NCBI GenBank assembly: GCA_037447475.1
Contig: JBBIGP010000004.1
Span: 7,713 to 71,712 of the forward strand
Direction of reading: 5' to 3'
Length of the DNA stretch: 64,000 nucleotides
From: Candidatus Aminicenantes bacterium
Lineage (GTDB): Bacteria > Acidobacteriota > Aminicenantia > Aminicenantales > Saccharicenantaceae
The position numbers and the translations under genes are program-made. Within the stretch, counting starts at the first letter, position 1; the number at the start of each line of letters is the position of its first letter. Below are positions 31,868-45,311 of the stretch, one piece after another. A model generated the notes under the pieces. That model did no database searches. It was given only the letters and a program-made list of their open reading frames with translations, and had not been told where the DNA came from.

Positions 31868-34576
31868 ATGAAAAAGCCGCTCATCGCGCTGGGCATGATA
31901 GCCCTGTTCCTCATGACGGCCGCCGTCTCCGCGCAGGAGCGCGGCTCGGTCCGCGGCGTCGTCAAGGACCAGGACGGGAACGCCATCCAAGGCGCCACCG
32001 CGACGATCGCGGGGGCATTCCTTCCGCGGGGGAGGGAGTTCGTCACCGGCCGTGACGGGATCTTCCTCTTTCAGGCCCTGCCGCCGGGCAATTATACGCT
32101 TCTCATCATCCATCCGCAGATGATGGACTATACGTCCGATGTCATCGTGGCCCTCGACCGGCAGACGGCCGTCAACGTCACGATGTCCGCCGTCGGCCGG
32201 GTCCAGGAGGAGATCACGGTCATGGCCGCCTCGCCCATCGTGGACCTGAAATCGACGTCGATCTCCGCGAGCTGGCACAAGGACCTCGTCGAGAAGCTGC
32301 CCATGGGCCGGTCCTACGCCTCGCTCTTCCAGCTGGCCCCCGGGGTCGCGGACAACCGCGATTTCGCGCCCAATGCCGGGGGGAACAAGCAGGACAACGT
32401 CTATCTCTACGACGGCTCGAACATCACGAATCCCCTTTTCGGGTATCTCGGGGCGAACTTCTCCGAGCTCGACATCCAGGAGGTCAACATCAAGAGGGGA
32501 GGCGTCACCGCCGAGTTCGGGCGGGCCGCGGGAATGGTCACCAACGCCGTCACTAAATCGGGCTCGAACACGGTCTCAGGCTCGATGCGGTTCATCTTCG
32601 AGCCCGCCGCGTTCACGGCCGGCTTCGTCGACCCCAACATCGTCACTAAATACAACCAGTACCAGCCGGCCGTCGGCGTCGGCGGCCCTCTCGTCAAGGA
32701 CAAGCTGTTCTGGTACGTCTCGGGGAACCTCCCTTACTCCCTGACCACGGGCCGGGTCAACAACTTAGGCAGCGTCCCGGATTCCAAGAGGACCTCGAAC
32801 GAGTTCTTCGGCAAGATCACCGCCAACCCCCACAAGGCCCACACGATCACCCTGAGCATCCGCAACAACGACTACAAGAACAGAGACGCGGGGATCGGCG
32901 TCAACGACCATCCGAGCGCCGCCTACGACAGCGAAGGATTGAACCGGATCATCTACGGATCTTGGGTCTGGACGATCTCCCAGAACACGATCCTCGAGAC
33001 CCGCTACAACCACGTCAACGAGGACTATTCCGCTGTTCCCATTACGGATCTCGGCTACCGCCCGGCCTTCGACATCAACAACCTTCCGGCCATGGGCTAT
33101 TTCCGGACGGCGACAGGCTATATCGTCGGCGGGGCCACGGCCAGCGGCCAGTTCGTCGGCGGCTATTCAATGAAAGACACCCAGAACTTTTTCCGGGATG
33201 AGCTCAAGTTCGTCCTGAGCCACTATGCGGATTTCCGCGGGCACTCCCATGTGCTGAAGGCGGGATTCTCTTACGACGACGGCGGGGAGTACCTGGACAG
33301 GATCGCCAACGGTTGGGGCTCCATCACCGTGACCACCTACGGAGGCCAGCCCGTTTTCCGGGCCGCGTATTACTCCGAGCAGGCCCCCCAGGATTCCCGG
33401 GGCCGGACCTATTCCATCTTCATACAGGACACGGCCACGATCGGCGAGCGCTTGACCCTGACCGCGGGCCTGCTCTTCAACCGGGACGAGTTCAGCGCCA
33501 AAACGGCCGCCGAAAAGAACACCTTCCTCAGATTCAGTTTCGAGCAGGAAGTCCAGCCGCGCATCGGGCTCGCGTTCACCCTCGACCCCAAAGCCGGCGA
33601 CAAGATCTACGCCAACTGGGGCCGTTACAACAACATGGACAACCGCAGCCTGTCCCGGGCCGCAGCCCCTATCCGGATCTTTCTGTCCGATGCCTATTTC
33701 CTCCGCTCGGACGGCTCCCTGATCGCCGACCTTCCCCGCACCGCGGAGACCGGCAAGGTCATCCTGCCAGGCCTCAAACCGACCTACACGGATGAGGTCG
33801 TGGGCGGATACAGCCGGCCGCTCGGCCGCGTCTGGAGCATCGATGTCTGGGGCCAGTATCGGACCATGAAGAACGTCATCGAGGATTTCCCGACCCGTAA
33901 CAGGGAAACCTCCCCAAGCCAGTATGTTTACGCAAACCTCAACGGGCAAACCATCTCTTATGGCGGGAACCCTGCGTTCGAAGCCGGCAAGGCCCGCCGC
34001 GTCTACAAAGCCGCCAGCTTCGAGCTCAAGAAGCAGTACGCGGACCGCTGGTCGATGACGTTCATGTACACCTGGAGCCGTCTCGAGGGGAACTGGGACC
34101 TCGACTATGCCGCGTCGGCGTTGTTCTACGCCTCTTCCGCTCTCGAGGATGGCCCCGGCCTGTACGTCAGCGACCCCAACCGCGACGGGCTCCTTATCGG
34201 GCACAGGACCCACGTCCTCAAGTTCTTCGGAAGCTGGGAATTCTACAAGAACTTCACCCTGGGCTGGTTCAGCCGGATCCAGAGCGGCCGTCCTTGGGAA
34301 TCGCGGGGCTTGGATTACGTCAACAGCTACCGCAGATACCTGGAGCCGGCCGGATCGAACACCCTCAAGGACTGGGGCAACCTCGACCTACAGGTGTCCT
34401 ACGCAATCCCCATTGGCCGGACGTTCCACGGCATAATTGAGGCCCGCATCATGAACCTCTTCAACGACCAGACGGCGCTGACCATCGACCAGCGCGCAGA
34501 CCAGCCCACTTTCAAGAACCCGACATCCTATGCGCCGCCGAGGAAGTTCGCACTCTCGTTCCACCTCAACTTCTGA
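31868..34576 (+). CDS. TonB-dependent-receptor-like outer-membrane beta-barrel with N-terminal carboxypeptidase-regulatory (CarbopepD_reg) domain
   Basis: 902 aa; signal peptide MKKPLIALGMIALFLMTAAVSAQE; VRGVVKDQDGNAIQGATATIAG...GNYTLLIIHP Ig-like domain; C-terminal ...FALSFHLNF beta-barrel terminus; AT-rich promoter region upstream. Confidence 0.75.
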   Translation: MKKPLIALGMIALFLMTAAVSAQERGSVRGVVKDQDGNAIQGATATIAGAFLPRGREFVTGRDGIFLFQALPPGNYTLLIIHPQMMDYTSDVIVALDRQTAVNVTMSAVGRVQEEITVMAASPIVDLKSTSISASWHKDLVEKLPMGRSYASLFQLAPGVADNRDFAPNAGGNKQDNVYLYDGSNITNPLFGYLGANFSELDIQEVNIKRGGVTAEFGRAAGMVTNAVTKSGSNTVSGSMRFIFEPAAFTAGFVDPNIVTKYNQYQPAVGVGGPLVKDKLFWYVSGNLPYSLTTGRVNNLGSVPDSKRTSNEFFGKITANPHKAHTITLSIRNNDYKNRDAGIGVNDHPSAAYDSEGLNRIIYGSWVWTISQNTILETRYNHVNEDYSAVPITDLGYRPAFDINNLPAMGYFRTATGYIVGGATASGQFVGGYSMKDTQNFFRDELKFVLSHYADFRGHSHVLKAGFSYDDGGEYLDRIANGWGSITVTTYGGQPVFRAAYYSEQAPQDSRGRTYSIFIQDTATIGERLTLTAGLLFNRDEFSAKTAAEKNTFLRFSFEQEVQPRIGLAFTLDPKAGDKIYANWGRYNNMDNRSLSRAAAPIRIFLSDAYFLRSDGSLIADLPRTAETGKVILPGLKPTYTDEVVGGYSRPLGRVWSIDVWGQYRTMKNVIEDFPTRNRETSPSQYVYANLNGQTISYGGNPAFEAGKARRVYKAASFELKKQYADRWSMTFMYTWSRLEGNWDLDYAASALFYASSALEDGPGLYVSDPNRDGLLIGHRTHVLKFFGSWEFYKNFTLGWFSRIQSGRPWESRGLDYVNSYRRYLEPAGSNTLKDWGNLDLQVSYAIPIGRTFHGIIEARIMNLFNDQTALTIDQRADQPTFKNPTSYAPPRKFALSFHLNF

Positions 34577-34799
34577 TCCGGCGTTTCGTTCGGGAAGAAA
34601 AGGGCGGCGACGTCTTCTTTTCGGCGGCGAGCACCCCGGCGGCCATGAACCCCCGGGGGGACATCTCCTGGATCCAGACCCGGATCGTCTCGAGAGGGGC
34701 GCCGATGGATTCGTGGACGGCCTCCGTGACGGCCGCGAGCAGGGCCTTCTTCTGATCGTCCGTCCGGCCTTCGAGGAGGTGGATCTCGATGAGCGGCAT
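34566..34799 (-). CDS. 4-oxalocrotonate tautomerase family protein
   Basis: MPLIEIHLLEGRTDDQKKALLAAVTEAVHESIGAPLETIRVWIQEM, catalytic Pro1 after Met. Confidence 0.7.
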   Translation of the reverse strand: MPLIEIHLLEGRTDDQKKALLAAVTEAVHESIGAPLETIRVWIQEMSPRGFMAAGVLAAEKKTSPPFSSRTKRRIRS

Positions 34800-34906: not shown

Positions 34907-35254
34907 ATGACCATAGCGACCCGAGACACGGACGGCGTTGTCATTTTCGACATCACGGGCGAGATCCGGCGCTCCGACAACATGGAAACGACTCTCCATC
35001 ACCTCGTCAAGTCCCACCTCGACCGGGGCAAGCGCAGGATCATGCTCAACTTGGAGAAGGTCGATTTCATCGACAGCTTCGGCGTCGGCGAGATCCTCGC
35101 TAGCTACATCTCCACCCAGAACCTGGGCGGGAGGTTCAAGCTCTTCAGCATCTCGAAAAAGCTCCTCCTCATCTTCCAGATCACGATGCTGACCAAGGTC
35201 CTCGACATCTACGAGGACGAGGGCTGCGCCCTGCGGAGTTTCGAACAGGCGTGA
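34907..35254 (+). CDS. STAS-domain anti-sigma-factor antagonist (SpoIIAA/RsbV-like)
   Basis: 115 aa; ...VVIFDITGEI...LNLEKVDFIDSFGVGEILASY... with phosphorylatable Ser in DSFGVG context. Confidence 0.8.
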   Translation: MTIATRDTDGVVIFDITGEIRRSDNMETTLHHLVKSHLDRGKRRIMLNLEKVDFIDSFGVGEILASYISTQNLGGRFKLFSISKKLLLIFQITMLTKVLDIYEDEGCALRSFEQA

Positions 35255-35281
35255 CCGGGCCGGCGCTGAGCGCGACGCTCC

Positions 35282-37849
35282 ATGCCTGACGACGGCCGGC
35301 TGAACAGGTTCCTGAACCGTTTCGGCTTCGCCGATGTCCGCGTCCCCGAAACGCGGGCCGTGTCCTATCTCTTCGCCCTCTTCTTCCTGACGACATTCTC
35401 GTTCTACATCATCAAGCCGGTCAAGGAGACCTTCCTCATCGGGGTGACTCCCGCCTGGTGGCCGTACGCGGACCTGGCCACGGCCCTGCTCATCGGCTTC
35501 GTCGTGGCCCTCAACGCCAGGCTCCTCAACCGCCTTCCGCGGCGGGCCTACTTGACGGGGACCGTCCTGTTCTTCGCCGCCTGCTTGTTCGTCTTCTGGT
35601 ACGTTTTCGACGCCGCCCTGCAGCTCCAGATCCGGACGCCCGTGATCCACTCCTCGGCCATTTTCGGCGTCATTCCCTTCCAGGTCGCCGTCCGCAACAT
35701 CTGGCCCCTTCCGGTGTTCGCCTTCAGCTTCTTTTCCGATGTCTTCATCGCCATGTCCGTCACCCAGTTCTGGATCGCGGTCAACGATACCCTCGATCCC
35801 TACCAGGCGAAGAGGACGGTCGGCCTGTTCGTCTCGGGGGGGCTGTTGGGCGGGATCGCCGGCGCCCTCCTGACGTCCCTCCTCGTCCGCGTCGTCGGCC
35901 CCGAGAACCTTCTCCTCGCCTGCCCCGGCATCCTCCTCGTCGTCCTGGCCGCCGTCCGCCTCGTCTACGGCGAGCAGAAAAAGCACAGGGGGGAGGCCGA
36001 GCCCTCGGCATCCCCGCCCAAGGCCCGGGTCGGCTACCTGGAGAGCTTCGGCGCCGTCCGGAGGAACAGGTATCTCCTGCTCCTGGCCGGGCTCCTGGCC
36101 TCGGCCATGGTCGCCGGGTCGCTCATCAACTATCAGTTCAAGATCGTCGTCAAGAGCGTCTTCGCGAGCAGCGTCGACCGGACCTCGTTCCTGGGCTCGT
36201 TCTTCTTCGCCATTCTCGTCCTCTCGACCCTTTTCCATCTGGCCGCCACGCGCCTCGTCCTGAAGAATTTCGGCATCCGGCTGGCCCTCCTCGTGGCCCC
36301 CGTGGTCCTGCTCCTCGGCTCGCTCTCGGTCTTCCTCCTCCCGGCCGGCGCCCTGATGGCCTGGGCCAGTCTCGTCAGGGGCGGCGACAAGATCTTCGAC
36401 AACACGATCGGCCAGTCGGTCCGGGAGCTGCTCTACATCCCCGTCCCGGACGAGATCAAGTACAAGGCCAAGATCTTCATCGACATGTTCGTCAACAAGT
36501 TCGCCGTCGGGCTCGGGGCCGGGCTGTTCCTCCTGCTCTACCACGCGTCGCGCTTCGCCTACAAGGCCGAACCGGCGCAGGTCCGGGAGGTCGGCGTCCT
36601 GGCCGTCGCCTTCATCGCCCTCTGGATGGTTCTCACGGGCGTCGTCTACGGGGAGTACCCGAGCGTCGTGAAGAAGGACCTGGCCCGCAAGTGGAAGGAC
36701 GCCGACAAGGTCGTCGAGGAGAGCGTGGACGTCGATGTGACCCGCCGCGTCTTCGACACCGTCCAGAGCCGGGAGCGGAGCGCGACCCTGTACGTCATGA
36801 ACGTCTTCGACCTCATGCGCCGCGGCCGCCTCAGCCCCGAGCTCAAGGAGCTCTTGGGATCCCAGAGGGACGAGCTCAGGGCCCGGTCCATGGACTGCTT
36901 GTTCGACGTCGGGGGAGAGGTCTTCTTCCAGGGGTTCGAGGAGGCCATCGCCGACGAGGACTTCGGGAAAGAGGTCGAGAAGGTCATCCAGTCGGACGAT
37001 TACAAGGCCCTCATGGAGGGACGCCTCGAGACGGTCGCCGGGTCCGCGTCGGAGATCGAGCGCATGGAAGCGGCCAGGCTCATCGGGATGATGGACCCGA
37101 CGCCCCGGGCCATGAGGGTCCTGAGCGTCCTTCTCCAGGACCCCTCGTCCGAGGTCGCAACGTACGCCCTCGACAGCGCGGCGATCCACCGGAGGAAAGA
37201 GCACATCCCCCTGGCTCTCTCCCAGCTGAGCAATCCCTTGACCTGCCAGGGCGCCCAGGCCGCCTTGGCCGCCTACGGCCCGGCCGCCGAGGAGGCCCTG
37301 AGAGCGGCCCTCCAGGACGAAGACCTGCCCCCCGGCGTCCGCCGGGCCATCCCCGATGTCCTGGGCCGGATCGGGACCCAGCGGGGGGCCGACATCCTTC
37401 TCGCCGAGCTCGGGAGGTGCGGCGAGGACATGGAGCCGGAGATTGTCGGAGCCCTTTACAGGATCCGCTCCGCCCGGCCGGGCGTTCTGTTCAAGGAGAA
37501 GAAGGTCCGTCCCGAGATCCTCCGCCTGGTCAGGAAAGCGGGGGAGATCTTCCTCGAGAGGGTCCTGGACGGACAGGACCCCGGCGCCACGGCGGCCCTC
37601 GACCTTCATGTCAAGCGGATTTTCGACCTGCTGACGCTCGTCCAACCGGCCGAGGACGTCGTCAAGGCCTACCAGAACATCCTTCAAGGGACGAAGCGGT
37701 CTGTCGATTATTCCCTCGAGCTTCTCGACAACCTGCTCGATCGGGAGCTCAAGAGGGCCCTCTTCCCGCTCCTCGAGGACCTCCCGCCCGAGGACAGGAG
37801 CGTCCGGCTGAGAAAGGCCCTTCGGGGCCTCGGCCGGGGCCGGGGTTGA
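35282..37849 (+). CDS. TLC/AAA-family (ATP:ADP antiporter-like) nucleotide transporter homologue fused to C-terminal HEAT/PBS-lyase-like repeats
   Basis: N-terminal ~480 aa polytopic with TLC-like signature FALFFLTTFSFYIIKPVKETFLI; C-terminal ~350 aa of repeated helical pairs (...QGAQAALAAYGPAAEEALRAALQDEDLPPGVRRAIPDVLGRIG...). Confidence 0.6.
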   Translation: MPDDGRLNRFLNRFGFADVRVPETRAVSYLFALFFLTTFSFYIIKPVKETFLIGVTPAWWPYADLATALLIGFVVALNARLLNRLPRRAYLTGTVLFFAACLFVFWYVFDAALQLQIRTPVIHSSAIFGVIPFQVAVRNIWPLPVFAFSFFSDVFIAMSVTQFWIAVNDTLDPYQAKRTVGLFVSGGLLGGIAGALLTSLLVRVVGPENLLLACPGILLVVLAAVRLVYGEQKKHRGEAEPSASPPKARVGYLESFGAVRRNRYLLLLAGLLASAMVAGSLINYQFKIVVKSVFASSVDRTSFLGSFFFAILVLSTLFHLAATRLVLKNFGIRLALLVAPVVLLLGSLSVFLLPAGALMAWASLVRGGDKIFDNTIGQSVRELLYIPVPDEIKYKAKIFIDMFVNKFAVGLGAGLFLLLYHASRFAYKAEPAQVREVGVLAVAFIALWMVLTGVVYGEYPSVVKKDLARKWKDADKVVEESVDVDVTRRVFDTVQSRERSATLYVMNVFDLMRRGRLSPELKELLGSQRDELRARSMDCLFDVGGEVFFQGFEEAIADEDFGKEVEKVIQSDDYKALMEGRLETVAGSASEIERMEAARLIGMMDPTPRAMRVLSVLLQDPSSEVATYALDSAAIHRRKEHIPLALSQLSNPLTCQGAQAALAAYGPAAEEALRAALQDEDLPPGVRRAIPDVLGRIGTQRGADILLAELGRCGEDMEPEIVGALYRIRSARPGVLFKEKKVRPEILRLVRKAGEIFLERVLDGQDPGATAALDLHVKRIFDLLTLVQPAEDVVKAYQNILQGTKRSVDYSLELLDNLLDRELKRALFPLLEDLPPEDRSVRLRKALRGLGRGRG

Positions 37850-37850
37850 A

Positions 37851-40034
37851 ATGGCCGGACGCGTCGTCTACAATGAGGGCGCAGGGGATGACATGCCCGA
37901 CTTCTACGTCTATCCCAAGACGGGCGATCCGTTCACCGTGCCGCTGAAGCCCGGCAAGATCACCATCGGCCGGGCGCCGACGAACGACCTCGTCCTTTCC
38001 GACCAGTTCAGCTCGGGATGTCACGCCTCCGTCTATCCGACGACAAGCGGATTCGTCCTTCTCGATCACGGCAGCAAGAACGGCACGTTCGTCAACGGCA
38101 AGAAGGTCACGGGGGAGATCCTCCTGGCCCGGGGGGACGAGATCCTCATCGGCTCGACGAGGATCTACTTCGACCGGGAGTTCCAGAGCAGCATCGAGAT
38201 GGTCGAGGGGACGACCTTCACCCACAGCTCGAACACCATCATCCAGGTCAAGGACATCCTGAAGAAGGCCCCCACGGCCGGCGACTACAGGACGCCCGGA
38301 GGGGAGCTCGACCTGGGGAAGCTCCAGCAGGAGCAGAAGATGATCGCGGTCATGGGGGAGGTCAGTCAGGCCCTCATCTACCACATGCCCCTCGACAAGC
38401 TGCTCAACCACATCATGGACGTTCTCATCCAATACCTGCCCATGGACCGGGGCGTCCTGATGCTCAAGGACCCGGCGACGGGCGAGCTCGCCCACAAGGT
38501 CGTCCGCGTCCAGAGCGGGTCCCTGAGGACGCAGAACATCGCCATCAGCAAGACCATCGTCCAGACCGCCGTCGAGAAGAACTCGGCCATCCTGCTGTCC
38601 GACATCCGGTCGGACGAGAGGTTCGGCGGCCAGGCCAGCGTCATCCAGGCCCAGATCCATTCGGCCATGTGCATCCCCCTCTGGAACAACCAGAACATTC
38701 TCGGGCTCATCTACGCCGACCGGGCCTCCCTCGTCGAGCAGTTCACGGAAGACGATCTGAAGCTGCTGACCCTGCTCGCCAACCTGGCCGCGGTCAAGAT
38801 CGAGAACGCCCGGCTCTACGAGAATTCCCTCAAAATGGAGCAGATGGAGCGCGAGATGGCGATGGCCGTCCAGATCCAGAAGAACTTCCTGCCCCGGGGG
38901 AACCCGTGGTTCGAACCCTACGACGTCAGCGGCAGCATGCGGGCCTGCCACCACGTCGGCGGGGACTACTACGATTTTCTGCCCGAGGCCGACGACCGGC
39001 TGGGCATCGTCATCGCCGACGTCTCGGGGACGGGGGTCAGCGCGGCCCTCCTCATGGCCAACCTGAGGGGGGCCCTGACCGAGAAGTTCCCGGTCACGCC
39101 GGACCTGGGCGAGCTGGTCGCCAAGCTCAACGACTTCGTCCATTCGAGCTCGGACAGCCATTGCTTCATTTCTTTTTTCCTGGCCGTCCTGGACCGCGCC
39201 CGGGACAGGCTGACCTACGTCAATGCCGGCCACAACCCCCCCCTGCTCGCGGACGATCGCGGCCGGATCAGCCGGCTCGAGAGCACGGGTCTCTGTCTCG
39301 GCATGTTCCCGGCCCGGGCCTACGAGCAGCGGACGATCGACCTCGGGCCGGGGGACGTGCTGTGCCTCTACACGGACGGGATCGTCGAGGGCCGGAACAA
39401 GGGCGGGGAGGAATTCGGGGAGGAGAGGCTCGCGGGGATCCTCCGGTCCGCCGCGGCCATGCCGGCCCGGGGGATCATGGAAAGGATCTACGAGGAGGTC
39501 CTCGCCTTCACGGACTGCTCCGCGGCCGGCGACGACATGACCCTCGTCGTCGTCCGGAAGAACCCGCGGCGGGAGGACGGCGAACGGTCTTCGACGGAAA
39601 GGGACGTGCGGGAGATCCGGGTCCCCGCCGCTCTCGAAGCCGTCGACCGCGTCAGGGAGTTCCTCCGGGCCTACATGGGCGAGCAACGGGTCCCCGACGA
39701 GGAGGCCCTGGCCGTCGAGCTCTCGCTCCACGAGATCTGCGTCAACATCGCGATGTACGCCTACTCCGGGGGTCCGGCGGGAGAGATGGCCGTCCGGATC
39801 TGGAACGATGACGGCATGCTGTTCCTCGAGATCCGCGACCGGGGCGTCCCCTTCGACCCCGCGGGAAAGCCGGACCCCGACCTTCTCGTCAAGGTCCGCC
39901 GCGGGCAGCGGGGCGGATTAGGCGTCTTTTTCTTCAAGACCCTCATGGACGGCTTCACTTACCGCCGGGAGAACGGGGAGAACGTCCTGACCGTCCGCAA
40001 GCGGATCCCGCCCCGGCCCGCTCCGGTTCAGTAG
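37851..40034 (+). CDS. FHA - GAF - PP2C(SpoIIE/RsbU-like phosphatase) - HATPase_c(RsbW-like anti-sigma kinase) four-domain partner-switching protein
   Basis: FHA: ITIGRAPTNDLVLSDQFSSGCHASVY...GSKNGTFVNGKKV; GAF region ~aa 170-330; PP2C motifs GGDYYDF, IADVSGTGVSAALLMANLRGAL, YVNAGHNPPLL, LYTDGIVEG; C-terminal ATPase ...ELSLHEICVNIAMYAY...GMLFLEIRDRGVPFDP. Confidence 0.8.
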   Translation: MAGRVVYNEGAGDDMPDFYVYPKTGDPFTVPLKPGKITIGRAPTNDLVLSDQFSSGCHASVYPTTSGFVLLDHGSKNGTFVNGKKVTGEILLARGDEILIGSTRIYFDREFQSSIEMVEGTTFTHSSNTIIQVKDILKKAPTAGDYRTPGGELDLGKLQQEQKMIAVMGEVSQALIYHMPLDKLLNHIMDVLIQYLPMDRGVLMLKDPATGELAHKVVRVQSGSLRTQNIAISKTIVQTAVEKNSAILLSDIRSDERFGGQASVIQAQIHSAMCIPLWNNQNILGLIYADRASLVEQFTEDDLKLLTLLANLAAVKIENARLYENSLKMEQMEREMAMAVQIQKNFLPRGNPWFEPYDVSGSMRACHHVGGDYYDFLPEADDRLGIVIADVSGTGVSAALLMANLRGALTEKFPVTPDLGELVAKLNDFVHSSSDSHCFISFFLAVLDRARDRLTYVNAGHNPPLLADDRGRISRLESTGLCLGMFPARAYEQRTIDLGPGDVLCLYTDGIVEGRNKGGEEFGEERLAGILRSAAAMPARGIMERIYEEVLAFTDCSAAGDDMTLVVVRKNPRREDGERSSTERDVREIRVPAALEAVDRVREFLRAYMGEQRVPDEEALAVELSLHEICVNIAMYAYSGGPAGEMAVRIWNDDGMLFLEIRDRGVPFDPAGKPDPDLLVKVRRGQRGGLGVFFFKTLMDGFTYRRENGENVLTVRKRIPPRPAPVQ

Positions 40035-40921
40035 AGGACCTTCTCTTCTCCGTTCATCCTGACGAGCCTGTCGATCTCCTTGAGGACGAGGTCCCTGCGG
40101 ACGAGCACGGCCTTGATCTCCTCGTCCGTGAGGTACTCGCCCACGACGCCCTTGACGGCCTCGGCATCGAGCGTCTTGATCTTGTCGACGATGGCCCGGG
40201 GCAGCTCGCTCATGAGCTTGGGGCCTTCCTTGTGCTTTTCCGTGTAGATCAGGCTCTTCGTGAACTTCCCCGAGGCCCGGAAGGACCGGGAGTGGTCGAT
40301 GAGGATCATCCGCCAGTCGGGCTGGGTGATGAGGATCTGGTTCTGGTGGCGGTCCTCGTTGGCGATGAGATTGTCCCAGAACCGCTGCAGGTAGGTCGCC
40401 CGGTTCCAATAATAGACCCTGATGGGCGGGACCTTGAGGTTCTTCTGCTCCTTGTCGCGGAGCGTGATGCAGTCCTCGACCCAGAGCTGGCAGGACCCGC
40501 GCTCCGCGCGGTAACGTCGCTCGACGGTCGGGGGGACCATGTTGAGCCCGAGGTGCTTGTCGAGGAGATAGGCGGCGACCTCGTAGTTCCAACCCTCCCA
40601 ATACCCGCCCATCCGGCCTTGGGCGTTCTTCCACAGGGCCCGGTGGGACACGTCGTCCTTTTTCAGGGTCAGGACCCAGGGGCTGGTCACGGATTCCCTT
40701 CCTGTCATCTGCCGGCTGTCGACGACCTCGGCCGTCCTCAGGAACTCCTCCCACTTCTCCCGCTCGGCCAGGTCTTCGGGCGTGAACTGGGCGGCGCCGA
40801 GTCGCGGGGCCGGCCCTCCGGGGCCGTTGGCCGGGCTCATGGCGTGGCCCAGGAGGACCACGGACAAGACGCCGGCGGCGATGGCGCCGGACACGATGGA
40901 TACGATCGCGGACTTTTTCAT
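40028..40921 (-). CDS. secreted protein with atypical kinase-like domain (HipA/CtkA/PI3-4K-like motifs), paralog 1
   Basis: Signal peptide/anchor MKKSAIVSIVSGAIAAGVLSVVLL; conserved EEFLRTAE, WKN, YEVAAYLLDKHLGLNMVPPT, catalytic-loop-like ANEDRHQNQIL (NxDxHxxN), metal-binding-like ILIDHSRSF; shares ~45% identity by eye with the next gene. Confidence 0.5.
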   Translation of the reverse strand: MKKSAIVSIVSGAIAAGVLSVVLLGHAMSPANGPGGPAPRLGAAQFTPEDLAEREKWEEFLRTAEVVDSRQMTGRESVTSPWVLTLKKDDVSHRALWKNAQGRMGGYWEGWNYEVAAYLLDKHLGLNMVPPTVERRYRAERGSCQLWVEDCITLRDKEQKNLKVPPIRVYYWNRATYLQRFWDNLIANEDRHQNQILITQPDWRMILIDHSRSFRASGKFTKSLIYTEKHKEGPKLMSELPRAIVDKIKTLDAEAVKGVVGEYLTDEEIKAVLVRRDLVLKEIDRLVRMNGEEKVLY

Positions 40922-40970
40922 TCTTCCCTCCCTGATCTATCCGGTCGATGGCCCAGCCATCTCCTCTCCC

Positions 40971-41807
40971 TCAGTAGAGGACGGCGGCTTCGCCCTGTTC
41001 CCGGACCATCTGGCGGATCTCCTTGAGCAGGAGGTCGCGGCGGGCCAGTACGGCCCGGATCTCCTCGTCCGTGAGGTACTCTCCCACAGCGGCCCGGATG
41101 GTCTCGAACGATAACTCCCGGATCCGGTCCACGAACGAGCGTGGCAGGCGCCGGAAGAGGAACGGCGTCCCCTGCATGGACGTCTGCAGGCCCCGCTGTC
41201 CGAACATCAGCCTTTTCGTGTGCTCCTTCGTCGCGCGGAACGACCGCGAGTGGTCGATGAGGATCATCCGCCAGTCCTCGGTGTAGAGGATGTTCTGCTG
41301 GTTCCGGTCCTCGTTGGCGATGAGACTGTCCCAGGCGCGGGTCAGCCACTTCATCTTTTCCGTGTGTTCCGTCACGGAGTCGGGAATGCGGATGTTGTTG
41401 TCGACGATCTTTTCCAGGCTGTGCTTGTTCTCGGCCCAGAGGACGAGGGCGCCGCTCTGTCCCTGGAACTCCCGCTCGACGGCCGGTGGGATCATGTTCA
41501 AGCCGATGAGCTTGTCGAGGCGGTAGGCGGCGATCTCGAATCGCCAGCCCTCGTAGAAGCCCAGCTGCATGCCGCTCGGGTTCTTCCAGCAGGCCGCCGC
41601 CTCGCGGTCTCCCTGTTTGAGAGTGAGCTTGAAGGGCTTGGTCACCCCTTCGCCGATCTCCTTGAAGCCGGCGATCTCGGCCGTCCTCAGGAACTCCTCG
41701 AACGCTTCTCTCGCGGCGATCTCGTCCGGGGTGAATTGCCCGAACAGGGCGGCCGGAGCCGCTATGAGCAGGAGAAGGCAAACGGCGGCCCGAAACGCAC
41801 ATATCAT
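40971..41807 (-). CDS. secreted protein with atypical kinase-like domain, paralog 2
   Basis: Trimmed to MICAFRAAVCLLLLIAAPAALFGQ signal peptide; same motifs: EEFLRTAE, WKN, FEIAAYRLDKLIGLNMIPPA, ANEDRNQQNIL, ILIDHSRSF, C-term ...GEYLTDEEIRAVLARRDLLLKEI...VLY. Confidence 0.5.
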   Translation of the reverse strand: MICAFRAAVCLLLLIAAPAALFGQFTPDEIAAREAFEEFLRTAEIAGFKEIGEGVTKPFKLTLKQGDREAAACWKNPSGMQLGFYEGWRFEIAAYRLDKLIGLNMIPPAVEREFQGQSGALVLWAENKHSLEKIVDNNIRIPDSVTEHTEKMKWLTRAWDSLIANEDRNQQNILYTEDWRMILIDHSRSFRATKEHTKRLMFGQRGLQTSMQGTPFLFRRLPRSFVDRIRELSFETIRAAVGEYLTDEEIRAVLARRDLLLKEIRQMVREQGEAAVLY

Positions 41808-41915
41808 CGAATCTTCCTCCGATGGCACCCTGATGCTCCTATCATAAGGAGGGTCAAGGGGGAAATCAAGCCCAGCCCGAGCCCCGTTTCCGCTTCGTGT
41901 GGCCGTCGAGGGGGA

Positions 41916-43406
41916 TCAGGCTTTGGCAAGGGCATCCTGGGCGGTCTTCCGCCTTCGGTAGGCGGGAATGATCTTGAGACAGATGCCGATCAGGACGGCC
42001 ACGGCGAAGACGTTGAGGAGAGCGTAGTTTTCGATGTGAAGTCCGAGAAGGTGGACGCCGATGAGGACGGCCAGCGCTGAAAGCGTGTCTCCCCCCCTGA
42101 CAAAGAAGGTGTCGATAGCCGCCTTGGCTTTATACTTCTCCTCCCGCTTGGTGACCAGGAACAGCGCGGCCTTGGTCGTATTCTGAAGGGAATAGTCGGT
42201 GCCGTTCTCGAAGGCCTTGACCCAGCGGACGAGCACGAGAACGGCTCCGAAGGAAATCAGCGTGTAGCCGCCCAGGGCGATGAGAGGAAGGAAGAGCAAG
42301 GCCCCTCCCACGCCGATCCACTTGAAGATGCGCGAGACCAGGAAGAGCTGGATGATGAGGGCGATCAGATTGGTCAGGAACTGGTAGTTCATGAATGCGC
42401 TGTGAATGGCCTTGCTCTCCGTTCCGGCGGGCAAGGCCGGGGACGCCGCCGGGCGCTTCCGATCGGCTCCATCGTCGGGAAGCGGGACGAGCCGGCCCCG
42501 CGGGCCTCCCGCGGCTCCATCGGCTATCGACTCCCTGACCGTGACGGCGGTGATGATATATTCCCCGGTCGCATTGATGAAATTATAGAGGCCGATCATG
42601 GCCGCGATGAGAAGAAGGTAGCGGCTCTTGAAGATCAGCCGGAACCCTCCTCCCGCTCTTAGCGGCTGTTCACTGGCGACGCTTTCCTCCTCGGCCTTGG
42701 CCAGGCCCTTTTCGCGGGCCTCGCGGGTGTCCCGGACGGCCCGGTTGTGGATATGCCAGGCCAAGGCGATGCAGAGCAGCAGGATGAGGCCCGCGATGAG
42801 CATGAGCTCGTATTCCCAGTTCTCCCCCAGGATATCCCTCAACCGCTTCATGATCGGCAAGGTCGCGACGAGCCATCCGAGCGTGGCTCCCAGGGCGACG
42901 AGCGGAAACGTGCGCTTTCCGACCTCGTCCGAATAGAGGTCGTTCGCGAAGCCCCAGAACTGGGCGATCACGAAATAATTGAATATGCCGATCCAGATGA
43001 AGAACATGATCCCCATGGGCTTGACGGCCATCCCGCTCAAGTTGAGGAAATAGAAGACGACGAGGTTGGAGATGAAGAATGATGTTGTCCAAGTGATAAG
43101 GATATGCCGAGGCACCCTGGAAGCGAGGCGACTGAATGCCTTGATGACGAAGATGAAGAGAACGGCTTGGGCCCCGCTCAGGTAGCTCTTGACTTGAGGG
43201 GAACCCTGGTCAACAAGGAGAAGCGACTCGCGCAGCGGCTTGAGGATGTAGTAGGCCAGAAGCAAAAGAAAGATGTTGAGGGCGAGCAGGAGGGCCTTCA
43301 GGGCTTCCCCCTTGCGGACGTCGGCGAACAGCCTGAGGAAGCCGTAGCCGATGTTCGAAGTAGCGCCGCCCGACGGCGGGATCCCCCCGCGGATTCTATC
43401 CCCCAT
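41916..43406 (-). CDS. TLC/AAA-family ATP:ADP antiporter-like nucleotide transporter (Npt/Tlc homologue)
   Basis: 496 aa, ~12 TM; TLC signature LKALLLALNIFLLLLAYYILKPLRESLLLV; internal Gly/Pro/Ala-rich ~40-aa loop insertion (…ADGAAGGPRGRLVPLPDDGADRKRPAASPALPAGTE…). Confidence 0.65.
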   Translation of the reverse strand: MGDRIRGGIPPSGGATSNIGYGFLRLFADVRKGEALKALLLALNIFLLLLAYYILKPLRESLLLVDQGSPQVKSYLSGAQAVLFIFVIKAFSRLASRVPRHILITWTTSFFISNLVVFYFLNLSGMAVKPMGIMFFIWIGIFNYFVIAQFWGFANDLYSDEVGKRTFPLVALGATLGWLVATLPIMKRLRDILGENWEYELMLIAGLILLLCIALAWHIHNRAVRDTREAREKGLAKAEEESVASEQPLRAGGGFRLIFKSRYLLLIAAMIGLYNFINATGEYIITAVTVRESIADGAAGGPRGRLVPLPDDGADRKRPAASPALPAGTESKAIHSAFMNYQFLTNLIALIIQLFLVSRIFKWIGVGGALLFLPLIALGGYTLISFGAVLVLVRWVKAFENGTDYSLQNTTKAALFLVTKREEKYKAKAAIDTFFVRGGDTLSALAVLIGVHLLGLHIENYALLNVFAVAVLIGICLKIIPAYRRRKTAQDALAKA

Positions 43407-43427
43407 GTCGACCTCCCTCCGGGACGC

Positions 43428-45311
43428 TCAGATCAGGACATGGCCCTCCCCGCGGGTCTCGATGAGCCTTTTGATGATCCGGATGATGAGGTCACGGCGG
43501 GAATGGAGGGCTTCGATCTCTTCTTTGTCGAGATGGGGCGACAGAAGGAGGAAGACCGCCTTCCTGTCCCACCCCAGGAGCTTGCCGAAGAGGTCTTTCG
43601 AGCACTTGCGGATCTCGCATCCGGGCGGAAGGCTCTTCCGGGGCGCGAAGGCTTCCGAGAAATCGACGCGGTAGATCCGCTGGTCGTCGCGGCTGACGAG
43701 CACGTCCCGGTCGTTGTCGCACTCTTCGTGGACGAGCATCTCGAAGAGCCGCAGGTCTTCCCGGTCCCGCTCGAAGGCCGCGGGCCGGGCCGGGGCGAGC
43801 TTCTGCTCCTTCCAGTCGAATTCCGAGATGGCGTTCTCGACGAAGACCTGCAGGGAGCCGGGGATCCCGTCGATCTCCCGCTCGATGACAGGCGGGACGA
43901 ACGCCAGCTTGAGGTACTTGGCGAGGTCGTAAGCGGCCAGCTCGTAGCGGTAGCTGTCGGGGAGCGGGTGAGGGCGGCGCCGGTCGATGTACTTGAACAT
44001 GGCCCTGCGCGTGACGCCGTCCTTCTCGAGGGTCACCCGCCAAGGCTCCGTCCGCCCGGCGGCGGCCGTCTTGCGGGCCATGGCCTTGGCCGTCCTGAGG
44101 AACTCCTCGACGGCTTTGGCCGAAGCGAGCGGTTCCGGGCGGGTGACGACCGGAGAGCTGCGGGCGGCGGCCTCTTCCGTCTCGCCCCAGAGCTCGAACC
44201 GTCCGTCCTCGTAGATGAGGGCCGCGGGCAGGCCGCCGTAAAACTCGGAGATCCCGGTGTCGATGACGAAGACCTTGCCGCCGAAGCGGCTGACGGTCTC
44301 GAGGGTCGCGATGGGGCTCGACCCGGCGTTGTTGACAGGCAGATAGCTGTGGCCGACGACGATGGCCCGGGCCCCGAGGTTGTCCAGGATACGGTCGACC
44401 TCGGCCTGAGCGGTGCCTTCGATATGGGTCGTCAGGCCCCGGAACCAGACCGGGCCGTCCGGCGCGTAGACGAGCTTGGGCTTGAAGGGCCTAAAATAGC
44501 GATGAGGGGACTTGATCCTCTCCCGGAACTCCTCGAGCTCCTTTCTCATGAGGTCGTTCGTCTCGCGCAACGGCCGTTTCGAGTAGTGCTCGTTGACGCC
44601 CCCGTGGAGGTAGACGACGTCGTTGATCTTGATGATGGTGTTCTTCGTCAGCAGCCAGCTTCCGTACAGGTCGTTGAAGGCGTTGACATAGGCCAGGCGG
44701 GCCTCCCGGTCGTGGCGGATGACACGCTGCCAGTAGGCCCGCAGAGCTTCGTCCGTCCCGAGATCCAGGCCCTCGGCCTCGGCCTGGCGGCGCCGGTCGC
44801 GGGGGAGCCTGGCGATGTAGGCCGCTTCCAGGGACCTGCGGACGCCGTCCGGGAGGAAGGAGACGAACTGCTCGGGCGTGACGTACTGAGGATAGTCCAG
44901 GGCGATGCCGGTGATGTTCATCTCCTCGTGGTTGCCGATGAGGACGTGGACCAAGCCGCCGGCCGCCTCGGCTTCCTTTTCGAGGCGCATGAGAAGGTCC
45001 ATGATCTTCCTGGCGTCGGGGCCGCGGTCCATGATGTCGCCGAGCTGGACGAGGTGGGCCGTCCCGGCGGTCCATCGGAGGTCCGCGTCGATGACGCCGA
45101 CCTCGGGGTTCGAGAGGATGAAGACGAACCGGTCGTAGTCGCCGTGCAGGTCGCCGACGGCGACGACGCGGCCGACGCCGGACCAGGCATAGGGGATCTC
45201 GGAGGCGGGAGAGAGCGGGACATGGAGCAGGATGAGCAGGAGAAGAATAAACAGACCTTTGAGGGGCCGACATGGGGCCTGTCGCGACCATCCCCTGCTG
45301 CGTTCGGGCAT
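43428..45311 (-). CDS. secreted calcineurin-like metallophosphoesterase fused to divergent atypical-kinase-like domain (paralog 3)
   Basis: Signal peptide ...LFILLLLILLHVPLSPA; MPE motifs VVAVGDLHGDYDRF, LVQLGDIMDRGPDARKIM, VLIGNHEEMN, ...IVVGHS...; C-terminal 250 aa aligns with paralogs 1/2 (EEFLRTAK, YELAAYDLAKYLKLAFVPP, ...GHVLI) but catalytic-loop region altered (HEECDNDRDVLV; YRVDFSEAF). Confidence 0.6.
   Translation of the reverse strand: MPERSRGWSRQAPCRPLKGLFILLLLILLHVPLSPASEIPYAWSGVGRVVAVGDLHGDYDRFVFILSNPEVGVIDADLRWTAGTAHLVQLGDIMDRGPDARKIMDLLMRLEKEAEAAGGLVHVLIGNHEEMNITGIALDYPQYVTPEQFVSFLPDGVRRSLEAAYIARLPRDRRRQAEAEGLDLGTDEALRAYWQRVIRHDREARLAYVNAFNDLYGSWLLTKNTIIKINDVVYLHGGVNEHYSKRPLRETNDLMRKELEEFRERIKSPHRYFRPFKPKLVYAPDGPVWFRGLTTHIEGTAQAEVDRILDNLGARAIVVGHSYLPVNNAGSSPIATLETVSRFGGKVFVIDTGISEFYGGLPAALIYEDGRFELWGETEEAAARSSPVVTRPEPLASAKAVEEFLRTAKAMARKTAAAGRTEPWRVTLEKDGVTRRAMFKYIDRRRPHPLPDSYRYELAAYDLAKYLKLAFVPPVIEREIDGIPGSLQVFVENAISEFDWKEQKLAPARPAAFERDREDLRLFEMLVHEECDNDRDVLVSRDDQRIYRVDFSEAFAPRKSLPPGCEIRKCSKDLFGKLLGWDRKAVFLLLSPHLDKEEIEALHSRRDLIIRIIKRLIETRGEGHVLI

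Follow-up and report, generated by a model that had tools for sequence, protein, structure and literature searches.

The metazoan Fam20 proteins (Fam20C, Fam20B and the pseudokinase Fam20A) work within a lumen to which a membrane nucleotide exchanger delivers ATP. Other enzymes and families that may be compared with them, such as HipA, CtkA, actin-fragmin kinase, PI4KII and the SCO1664 family, so far as is known, either work in the cytoplasm or reach a host as effectors, and the bacterial periplasm is generally held to be without ATP. Fam20 has been treated as animal-restricted in reviews, and the NTT and NTT-HEAT transporter genes of free-living bacteria were catalogued in 2017 and left unexplained (Major et al. 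2017, PMC5381601). A gene cluster in the genome of a Candidatus Aminicenantes bacterium brings these subjects together. The linkage of NTT genes to genes for secreted kinases, a phosphatase and a partner-switching module is not known to have been described before: the preliminary description of this DNA knew of no system with such a composition, and the searchable literature, outside which most subscription journals lie, yielded no account of a bacterial kinase system that is Fam20-like or uses periplasmic ATP.

The cluster consists of seven closely packed genes in two convergent operons at positions 34907-45311 of the window (the whole stretch of 64,000 nucleotides that was analysed). Pfam and NCBIfam domain searches confirmed all seven, with the domains and operon arrangement first proposed for them. 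On the plus strand are genes for a STAS protein, a transporter fused to HEAT repeats (TLC1-HEAT) and an FHA-GAF-PP2C-HATPase protein; on the minus strand are those for a fusion of a phosphatase with a kinase-like domain (K3), a stand-alone transporter (TLC2) and two kinase-like proteins (K2 and K1). Within an operon, 1-108 nt separate one gene from the next; the 3' ends of the two operons overlap by 7 nt. The neighbouring genes are unrelated housekeeping genes, encoding a TonB-dependent-receptor-like outer membrane protein, a tautomerase, NamZ and glutamine synthetase. Membership of an anti-phage defence system was ruled out, as none of the seven proteins matched a PADLOC defence-system model.

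Kinase-like proteins and the phosphatase

K1 (40028-40921, minus strand, 297 aa) is a Fam20/PI4KII-like kinase whose catalytic set is complete; it has a long N-terminal hydrophobic segment, either a signal peptide or a signal anchor. Its paralogue K2 (40971-41807, minus strand; 278 aa from an ATG, or 285 aa from a GTG at 41828) is ~49% identical to K1 in alignment, has a signal-peptide-like segment at its N-terminus and likewise has a complete catalytic set. Both paralogues of the preliminary description are present, with the frame of K2 corrected: the open reading frame at 40918-41802 is arginine- and proline-rich, lies in the wrong frame and has no family matches, and the public annotation of the identical contig also calls K2 as a 278-aa gene. 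The catalytic residues K98, E114, D190 and D209 of K1 are shared by K2 and are invariant in 42 of 42 K1 orthologues, and the full series of catalytic positions (Lys, Glu, Asp, Asn, Asp), also invariant in these 42, is conserved family-wide. The third kinase-like domain, K3 (43428-44141, minus strand), is the C-terminal part of the 627-aa fusion protein (43428-45311). It keeps the beta3 Lys, the alphaC Glu and the DFG-type Asp (VDFSEAF) but not the catalytic-loop N-x-D-R motif, a loss common to the whole K3 subfamily. Given the missing catalytic-loop Asp, K3 is probably a pseudokinase.

The fold of the family is atypical protein-kinase-like, and among solved structures it is most similar to Fam20; structure comparison thus upheld the initial recognition of a kinase-like domain over a non-kinase fold. 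When a profile built from 27 sequences of distant bacterial members (alignment A4) was compared with the PDB, it matched FAM20A (E 4.5e-14), Fam20C (E 4.3e-10 and 6.5e-9) and Fam20B (E 2.6e-7), with an alignment reaching through the C-terminal helix, and PI4KII (E 1.8e-4) behind all the Fam20 matches. One family member, P0122, passes the Pfam Fam20C cutoff of 26.8 with 29.4 bits. K1 alone matched 5xom only weakly (E 0.14), and a Pfam search of K1 did not reach the Fam20C threshold. In sequence the family is nearer to Fam20 than to HipA, CtkA, actin-fragmin kinase, PI4KII or SCO1664-family proteins; a TIGR03843 score of 44.8 bits, where the cutoff is 172.4, led to the rejection of SCO1664-family membership. 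By sequence, K1 and K2 are bacterial homologues of the Fam20 secretory-pathway kinases, catalytically complete as judged from their residues. They differ from metazoan Fam20 in being bacterial, in having only ~250 aa after the signal, in being ~20% identical to it, and in sharing their operons with genes for NTT-family transporters and a PPP phosphatase.

The bacterial family comprises about 680 clusters (50% identity) at E ≤ 1e-30 and about 4,300 at E ≤ 1e-3, and the existence of so large a bacterial family with Fam20 sequence homology may bear on the origin of secretory-pathway kinases. The N-termini of K1, K2 and the K3 fusion protein are all signal-peptide-like by sequence. Sec-type signals of the kind noted at the outset are the predicted rule in the family: signal-peptide-like N-termini were recognised in 125 of 150 representatives by a hydropathy heuristic (rather than SignalP), and some of these carry a lipobox-like Cys. 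One family member is fused to PD40 repeats, and fusion to a phosphatase recurs widely across the family.

The N-terminal part of the fusion protein in the cluster (44142-45311, minus strand) has a signal-peptide-like N-terminus and a Pfam Metallophos domain. The enzyme first called a metallophosphoesterase can be assigned more specifically, on its sequence, to the Shewanella-type PPP protein phosphatases: a phmmer search of the PDB matched it to the cold-active protein-tyrosine phosphatase of Shewanella (1v73/2z72, E 1.3e-35) and to plant RLPH2 (5vjv, E 2e-4), and there are weak ApaH/PrpE matches in NCBIfam. All the PPP metal-binding motifs are present (GDLHGD, GDIMDRG, GNHE within GNHEEM, LHGG and GH), as in the Shelphs (1V73/2Z72, plant RLPH2), from which the protein differs in its C-terminal Fam20-like (pseudo)kinase domain and its NTT-type neighbour.

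Transporters and partner-switching module

TLC1-HEAT (35282-37849, plus strand, 855 aa) has an NTT/TLC-family transporter at residues ~19-413 followed by C-terminal HEAT repeats (Pfam HEAT_2, E 6e-9), which are predicted to be cytoplasmic. TLC2 (41916-43406, minus strand, 496 aa) is a transporter of the same family without a partner domain, and its orthologues are 73-87% identical. Against the Pfam TLC cutoff of 21, TLC2 reaches 60.3 bits and TLC1 47.2 bits, the latter above the 40.3 bits of TLC1 on MFS_1. Among all PDB chains, the sole match to the N-terminal 440 aa of TLC1 was 9j3n, an NTT carrier (residues 19-413 aligned with 19-452, E 8.4e-10), and the TLC2 family profile matched only NTT carriers (9j3n, E 2.3e-16; 9j3j, E 3.4e-9), which favours TLC identity over generic MFS transporters. 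The motifs FWGFAN and Y-x-P-x-x-x-x-x-K-x-K-(G/A)-K-A-A-I-D of solved NTTs were compared: in TLC2, FWGFAN occurs at residue 150 and KYKAKAAID ends at residue 432, both motifs being common to solved NTTs, and the counterparts in TLC1, which carries the NTT signature YIPVPDEIKYKAKIFID, are FWIAVND and KYKAKIFID. A crude hydropathy scan found 11-12 segments, some of them overlapping, where ~12 transmembrane helices are expected of an NTT, and an AF2 model of TLC2 from 37 sequences had a pLDDT of 40.7.

NTT-family members also carry NAD or other nucleotides, or work as symporters. TLC1 and TLC2 are assigned by these matches to the NTT/TLC family at a distance from its characterised members, since neither qualifies for the TIGR00769 equivalog (TLC2 48.8 bits, TLC1 35.2 bits, cutoff 387.2); with scores so far below the cutoff, a substrate cannot be transferred by homology. 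With the translocases of Chlamydia, Rickettsia and plastids they share Pfam TLC and the FWGFAN and K-x-K-A-A-I-D motifs; the free-living host and the proposed direction of transport, export, set them apart from characterised NTTs. The preliminary description regarded TLC transporters as out of context in a free-living genome, but such NTT and NTT-HEAT genes were already known, if unexplained, and the architecture of TLC1 is identical to that of a widespread bacterial NTT-HEAT fusion clade (PMC5381601).

The STAS protein (34907-35254, plus strand, 115 aa) resembles anti-sigma-factor antagonists (Pfam STAS E 4.7e-11; TIGR00377 59.9 bits, cutoff 53.45) and has a conserved phosphorylatable Ser57 in a FIDSFG motif; its gene is directly upstream of the TLC-HEAT gene wherever both were seen. 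The FHA-GAF-PP2C(SpoIIE)-HATPase_c_2 protein (37851-40034, plus strand, 727 aa; gene callers place an alternative start at 37893) has Pfam E-values of 1.2e-50 for SpoIIE, 1.4e-25 for HATPase_c_2, 8e-17 for GAF and 1e-16 for FHA. It is predicted to be cytoplasmic and to combine a partner-switch phosphatase and an RsbW-like kinase in one chain; in other Aminicenantes, PP2C and HATPase are encoded by separate genes. The partner-switch set is therefore complete, with a Ser-bearing STAS antagonist, an RsbW-type kinase and a PP2C phosphatase, all like those of the RsbV/RsbW/RsbU and SpoIIAA/AB/IIE systems. It differs from these in the fusion of kinase and phosphatase with FHA and GAF domains and in the lack of a sigma factor, no gene for which was found within 34907-45311 or its immediate flanks. 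The location of the transporter gene between those for STAS and the phosphatase suggests that the output of the module is the transporter and not transcription.

Conservation of the gene cluster

The combination of genes recurs in many genomes and survives rearrangement, as a neighbourhood search showed. GTDB species representatives provided 46 loci that contain a K1 orthologue and span at least 15 kb; of these, 40 carry a TLC gene, 42 a phosphatase gene, 40 a HATPase gene and 34 a STAS gene. K2 is kept adjoining K1 in 73 of 80 loci. Because these partners recur in most of the 46 loci, their adjacency is not due to chance. Within the Aminicenantes, the kinase/phosphatase and partner-switch modules stay linked in two different gene arrangements, and TLC2 is missing from some loci. 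In three Thermoanaerobaculia genomes, Metallophos, TLC-HEAT and K genes occur together between unrelated flanks. In the cultured gammaproteobacterium Aliiglaciecola litoralis, a TLC2-type gene (33% identity, E 1e-65) precedes a phosphatase-kinase fusion gene (30% identity, E 3e-73) at a distance of 8 nt. A scan of metagenomes with a six-sequence alignment (A5) found TLC in 11 of 23 loci of at least 8 kb that belong to a K group ~30-35% identical to K1-K3. No TLC gene was found within 8 kb of a Chromatiales phosphatase-kinase fusion or of three more distant K subfamilies (loci L169-L171), which rules out a universal linkage. Thus, kinase, phosphatase and TLC transporter form a core that is conserved across lineages but not throughout the family. 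Neither the Thermoanaerobaculia nor the gammaproteobacterial versions include the partner-switching module, which is an accessory specific to the Aminicenantes; the preliminary description was right about its presence, but control of the HEAT-fused transporter is a more plausible role for the module than a readout of the state of the periplasm.

A possible extracytoplasmic phosphorylation system

The mechanism that these features suggest as the best fit is export of ATP to support phosphorylation outside the cytoplasm. K1 and K2 would be exported, or anchored in the membrane, through their N-terminal Sec signals, so that their kinase domains would face the periplasm. Every known kinase-fold enzyme, to our knowledge, requires a nucleoside triphosphate, and both NTT/TLC transporters are therefore proposed as exporters, which would carry ATP out of the cytoplasm in exchange for periplasmic ADP (possibly with Pi); they would run like the carriers of plastids and Chlamydia, with the physiological direction reversed. 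The exported phosphatase-K3 protein would reverse the modification; alternatively, K3 may be an ATP-binding, substrate-binding or kinase-activating module, as Fam20A is for Fam20C. In the Aminicenantes, the partner switch (STAS Ser57, PP2C and the RsbW-like kinase, with GAF and FHA sensors) might gate ATP export according to the state of the cell, acting through the cytoplasmic HEAT domain of TLC1. We put the probability that the cluster encodes an extracytoplasmic phosphorylation module fed by ATP export at about 0.5, and regard the earlier interpretation, which had the same core, as partly supported. Periplasmic ATP would be expected to leak through a porin-containing outer membrane, and the non-universal TLC linkage, the missing catalytic Asp of K3 and the distance of the transporters from characterised NTTs must also be counted against the model.

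Characterised NTTs are importers, and the cluster might instead serve the scavenging of nucleotides or phosphate, with the TLC proteins importing extracellular nucleotides, the phosphatase trimming phosphoesters derived from nucleic acids, and the kinase-like proteins acting as periplasmic accessories that bind or process nucleotides. A TonB-dependent receptor gene upstream of the cluster would suit such a role, as would the degenerate catalytic loop of K3, which could make it a binding module; nucleotidases and Ap4A hydrolases both belong to the metallophosphoesterase superfamily, and there are the weak ApaH/PrpE matches. We consider scavenging unlikely: binding proteins have no need of the full phosphotransfer set that is invariant in K1 and K2, whose nearest kinase relatives act on proteins, glycans or lipids; the closest solved relative of the phosphatase is a protein-tyrosine phosphatase (E 1e-35), not a nucleotidase; and regulated release accounts better for a cytoplasmic GAF/FHA partner switch that surrounds a HEAT-fused transporter. 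Nucleotide supplied by the TLC proteins might also be put to other uses, such as AMPylation (as by SelO) or glutamylation (as by SidJ), or the kinases might modify envelope glycans or lipids in the manner of the xylosylkinase Fam20B or of PI4KII. The family is equally close in fold and sequence to the glycan kinase Fam20B, the lipid kinase PI4KII and the protein kinase Fam20C, and pseudokinase-like members exist, K3 among them; protein, glycan and lipid substrates are not told apart by the present evidence. Retention of the canonical catalytic Asp and Asn in K1 and K2 argues against other chemistry, and the recurrence of a PPP-type protein phosphatase as fusion partner speaks for phosphoproteins as the substrates; this explanation too seems doubtful.

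Low similarity to characterised NTTs, the lack of any characterised member in the free-living NTT clades (PMC5381601) and the lack of TLC genes at some K-family loci would be accommodated if the transporters carried another solute, for instance a substrate exported for periplasmic kinases and phosphatase that use some other phosphodonor, and if their linkage had nothing to do with nucleotide supply. This is very improbable in view of the retained NTT signature motifs and of PDB matches to NTT carriers only, and we know of no phosphodonor other than a nucleoside triphosphate for the kinase fold. High-GC sequence contains many spurious open reading frames, and the signal-peptide calls come from a simple heuristic; that unrelated genes are adjacent by chance, or that cytoplasmic kinases have had their N-termini misread, can nonetheless be given hardly any weight against a linkage kept at 30-90% identity, in two gene arrangements and across phyla, and against N-terminal signals in such a large majority of diverse representatives.

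If ATP export does feed such kinases, the view of an ATP-free periplasm would be overturned for these lineages, and bacterial extracytoplasmic phosphosignalling or envelope modification would open as a field. The NTT and NTT-HEAT genes of free-living bacteria would acquire a concrete function that explains their persistence, and the animal secretory-pathway kinase system would have a prokaryotic counterpart and possibly an evolutionary source. The wider proposition, that free-living bacteria of several phyla carry out dedicated ATP-dependent phosphorylation outside the cytoplasm, with ATP exported by NTTs, Fam20-family kinases exported by Sec and a Shewanella-type phosphatase opposing them, is advanced tentatively, at somewhat worse than even odds. 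Since Aliiglaciecola litoralis is in culture, the cluster is open to experiment.

Gene content and conservation of the convergent cluster

The cluster at window 34907-45311 comprises seven genes in two convergent operons with intra-operon spacing of 1-108 nt, their domains assigned with Pfam and NCBIfam. The plus-strand operon encodes a STAS protein (34907-35254), a TLC transporter of 855 aa that carries HEAT repeats at its C-terminus (TLC1, of the TLC-HEAT type; 35282-37849), and a 727-aa FHA-GAF-PP2C-HATPase_c_2 protein (37851-40034). The minus-strand operon encodes a Metallophos protein of 627 aa that ends in a kinase-like domain, K3 (43428-45311), a 496-aa stand-alone TLC protein (TLC2, 41916-43406), and the kinase-like proteins K2 (40971-41807) and K1 (40028-40921). 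Genes, domains and operons are as in the preliminary description. Only the coordinates of K2 needed correction: the ORF at 40918-41802 is out of frame, an artefact of high-GC sequence, and 40971-41807 corresponds to a 278-aa gene annotated on a public contig of identical sequence. The stop-proximal 3' ends of the FHA-GAF-PP2C-HATPase and K1 genes overlap by 7 nt (40028-40034), which leaves no space for two individual terminators. In relatives with a split gene, the HATPase stands alone and is still convergent with K1 and abuts it (locus L001, 10864/10865).

The flanking genes are unrelated (TonB-dependent-receptor-like outer membrane protein, NamZ, glutamine synthetase, URO-D). The first of these (31868-34576, plus strand, with an N-terminal CarboxypepD_reg domain) is directly upstream of the cluster and is not kept with it elsewhere, the neighbours in L001 and L002 being different. 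A small 4-oxalocrotonate-tautomerase-family gene (34566-34799, minus strand, mapped from L003 7428-7661), divergent and upstream of the STAS gene, is syntenic in genomes only ~64% identical (L001, L002) and is probably unrelated.

Eighty loci with K1 orthologues were taken from GTDB species representatives, all Aminicenantes-type genomes, and screened with the window proteins and our own HMMs. Among the 46 loci of at least 15 kb, TLC genes are present in 40, phosphatase in 42, HATPase in 40, STAS in 34, and two or more K genes in 45; the combination noticed in the window is thus kept in other genomes. It occurs either in the convergent layout of the window or with a divergent STAS, TLC-HEAT and PP2C operon placed upstream, in which TLC-HEAT is often present as a tandem pair, and a stand-alone HATPase gene still convergent to K1. 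Because linkage survives this rearrangement, a functional connection is indicated. One contig with the Aminicenantes-type K2, K1, HATPase arrangement (L034, JBHIEG010000043.1; 67% identity) is labelled Candidatus Hydrothermarchaeota archaeon, probably a binning or labelling error, and the "uncultured Eubacteriales bacterium" labels on many binchicken MAGs among L004-L083 are uninformative.

Outside Aminicenantes, three Thermoanaerobaculia-type genomes have Metallophos and TLC-HEAT genes together with a convergent K gene, and the surroundings are otherwise unrelated. In a second sample of 80 metagenomic loci, with a K group only ~30-35% identical to K1-K3, TLC was found in 11 of the 23 that span 8 kb or more and in 7 of the 11 that span 15 kb or more, typically in the order K, TLC-HEAT (single or double), phosphatase-K, K. 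The cultured gammaproteobacterium Aliiglaciecola litoralis has a gene for a 549-aa TLC2-like protein (33% identity over the full length, E 1e-65), followed after 8 nt by a gene for a phosphatase-kinase fusion (30% identity to the window fusion protein, E 3e-73). Partner-switching genes are absent from these versions, so the core consists of kinase, phosphatase and TLC transporter, and STAS/PP2C/HATPase is an Aminicenantes addition. No TLC gene was found within 8 kb of a Chromatiales fusion gene or of three more distant K subfamilies; the K-TLC linkage is not universal.

Kinase-like proteins with predicted export and the fused phosphatase

K1, K2 and K3 are paralogues (K2 49% and K3 33% identical to K1). 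Pfam recognizes almost nothing in them apart from one weak PI3_PI4_kinase match (E 0.006), and an NCBIfam SCO1664-family match is below threshold. Their bacterial relatives, the K family, form 4319 clusters (50% identity) at E ≤ 1e-3, 1837 at E ≤ 1e-10, and 676 at E ≤ 1e-30. A profile built from 27 distant members and run against the PDB matched FAM20A (E 4.5e-14), Fam20C (4.3e-10 and 6.5e-9), Fam20B (2.6e-7) and C. elegans Fam20 (3.7e-5), with PI4KII (1.8e-4) ranked behind all Fam20 matches. The catalytic loop and C-terminal helix lie within the alignment, and one K-family member exceeds the Pfam Fam20C gathering score; judged by these profiles, the relation to Fam20 goes beyond fold level.

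Residues K98, E114, N188, D190, R191, H192, N194 and D209 are kept in all 42 K1 orthologues examined, and K2 has the same catalytic set; the wider family consensus is L-I-x-N-x-D-R-N-x-G-N ... I-D-H-T-R-A-F. A Cys pair is also conserved in the K1 orthologues (C144 in 41/42, C151 in 35/42). The three proteins had been described together as kinase-like. K3 and its entire subfamily have lost the N-x-D-R loop (the position is variable, often Cys), carry Asp in place of the downstream Asn, and retain the Lys, the Glu and V-D-F-S-E-A-F. K3 is therefore a probable pseudokinase or divergent ATP-binding module, and its subfamily may be a bacterial parallel of the Fam20A pseudokinase. This subfamily (K3 domain at 43428-44141; also P0145, P0148, P0155 and P0160, among others) further conserves D-[TIV]-L-I and includes both phosphatase-fused and stand-alone forms (~265 aa, with signal-peptide-like N-termini).

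The Sec-type signals reported for all three proteins were recognized at the N-terminus as a basic followed by a hydrophobic stretch, the hydrophobic part of K1 being long enough for a signal anchor. A simple hydropathy rule finds such N-termini in 125 of the 150 best K-family representatives, the remainder being mostly fragments or lacking a Met start; several have a lipobox-like Cys, and one K-family protein carries a fusion to PD40 repeats. An extracytoplasmic location is thus well supported as a prediction.

The N-terminal part of the fusion protein, earlier called a metallophosphoesterase, is more precisely a Shewanella-type PPP phosphatase: residues ~40-390 carry GDLHGD, GDIMDRG and GNHE and align with the cold-active protein-tyrosine phosphatase of Shewanella (1v73/2z72, E 1.3e-35), with plant RLPH2 a weaker PDB match. 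Such fusions are frequent in the K family (550-900 aa), and in most lineages, e.g. Aliiglaciecola, the fused kinase domain has a canonical catalytic loop.

NTT-family transporters

TLC1 and TLC2 both exceed the Pfam TLC threshold, and TLC2 orthologues carry the pipeline annotation ATP:ADP antiporter. In the PDB, the TLC2 family profile matched only 9j3n (E 2.3e-16) and 9j3j (3.4e-9), solved NTT ATP/ADP carriers, and the transporter domain of TLC1 matched only 9j3n, nearly full length (E 8.4e-10). Given these matches and the motifs FWGFAN and K-Y-K-A-K-A-A-I-D in TLC2, with FWIAVND and KYKAKIFID in TLC1, both are NTT-family proteins, as originally assigned, and not generic MFS transporters. Free-living bacteria were already known to carry NTT and NTT-HEAT genes, whose presence there is unexplained (PMC5381601).

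The Pfam TLC model does not recognize the A. litoralis TLC2 homologue (L167 8343-9992, GCA_039523355.1), which has only weak MFS_1 and C-terminal He_PIG Ig-like matches, and thus Pfam-based NTT censuses of free-living bacteria probably undercount this clade. Tandem TLC-HEAT duplicates are common within the cluster (L028, L036, L040, L042, L060, L075, L078; L091, L094, L097), a possible sign that transport has two specificities or two directions, e.g. ATP out and ADP, AMP or Pi back.

Predicted function and alternatives

Confidence is high that this is a genuine, conserved module. In the mechanism we propose, at roughly even odds, the TLC proteins would send ATP out and take ADP in, K1 and K2 would use the ATP to phosphorylate extracytoplasmic targets, the PPP phosphatase would undo the modification, and K3, by analogy with Fam20A, could have a role in targeting, in sensing ATP or in activating the kinases. 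The relationship to protein phosphatases favours proteins as targets, and the similarity to Fam20B and PI4KII makes glycans or lipids possible. Animals offer a close analogy: in their secretory pathway, a Fam20 kinase works in the lumen and relies on an ATP/ADP exchanger of the organelle.

Chance adjacency is excluded by the conserved linkage, and three main rivals are left: nucleotide scavenging with TLC as importer, transport of an unrelated solute, and a kinase fold performing chemistry other than phosphorylation. Both transporters score far under the NCBIfam equivalog cutoff, so that neither substrate nor direction can be transferred by homology; characterized members of the NTT/TLC family exchange ATP and ADP across membranes. 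Every enzyme of this fold known to us uses a nucleoside triphosphate, and the catalytically intact K copies, predicted to be exported, adjoin NTT-family genes; ATP export is the reading we prefer as the simplest.

In Aminicenantes, the TLC1 gene lies between those for a STAS protein with a phosphorylatable Ser and a PP2C/RsbW-type pair with GAF and FHA sensors, and no sigma factor gene was found near the window cluster. The components of the partner-switching cascade in the preliminary description are present; in place of the state readout suggested there, we infer, as the least supported step, that the switch may gate the transporter, the HEAT domain of TLC1 being predicted to be cytoplasmic.

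The component parts are known families, and reviews treat Fam20 as animal-restricted. In the searchable literature, which excludes most subscription journals, no description was found of bacterial secreted Fam20 homologues, of their fusion to Shewanella-type phosphatases or of their linkage to NTT transporters, nor of any system of such composition, as previously stated.

Some TLC-less K loci adjoin Hanks-type kinases. Large genes for Hanks-type Ser/Thr kinases, one of 1576 aa with TPR repeats, adjoin a secreted kinase-like gene in non-Aminicenantes loci (L085 5107-9837; L170 10183-11514; L171 6102-7991), for which cross-talk with Ser/Thr signalling in the cytoplasm is a possible reason that would fit the FHA domain of the window protein. 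In L169, a STAS, RR-SpoIIE and RR-HATPase_c_2 set is located ~4 kb from the kinase-like gene.
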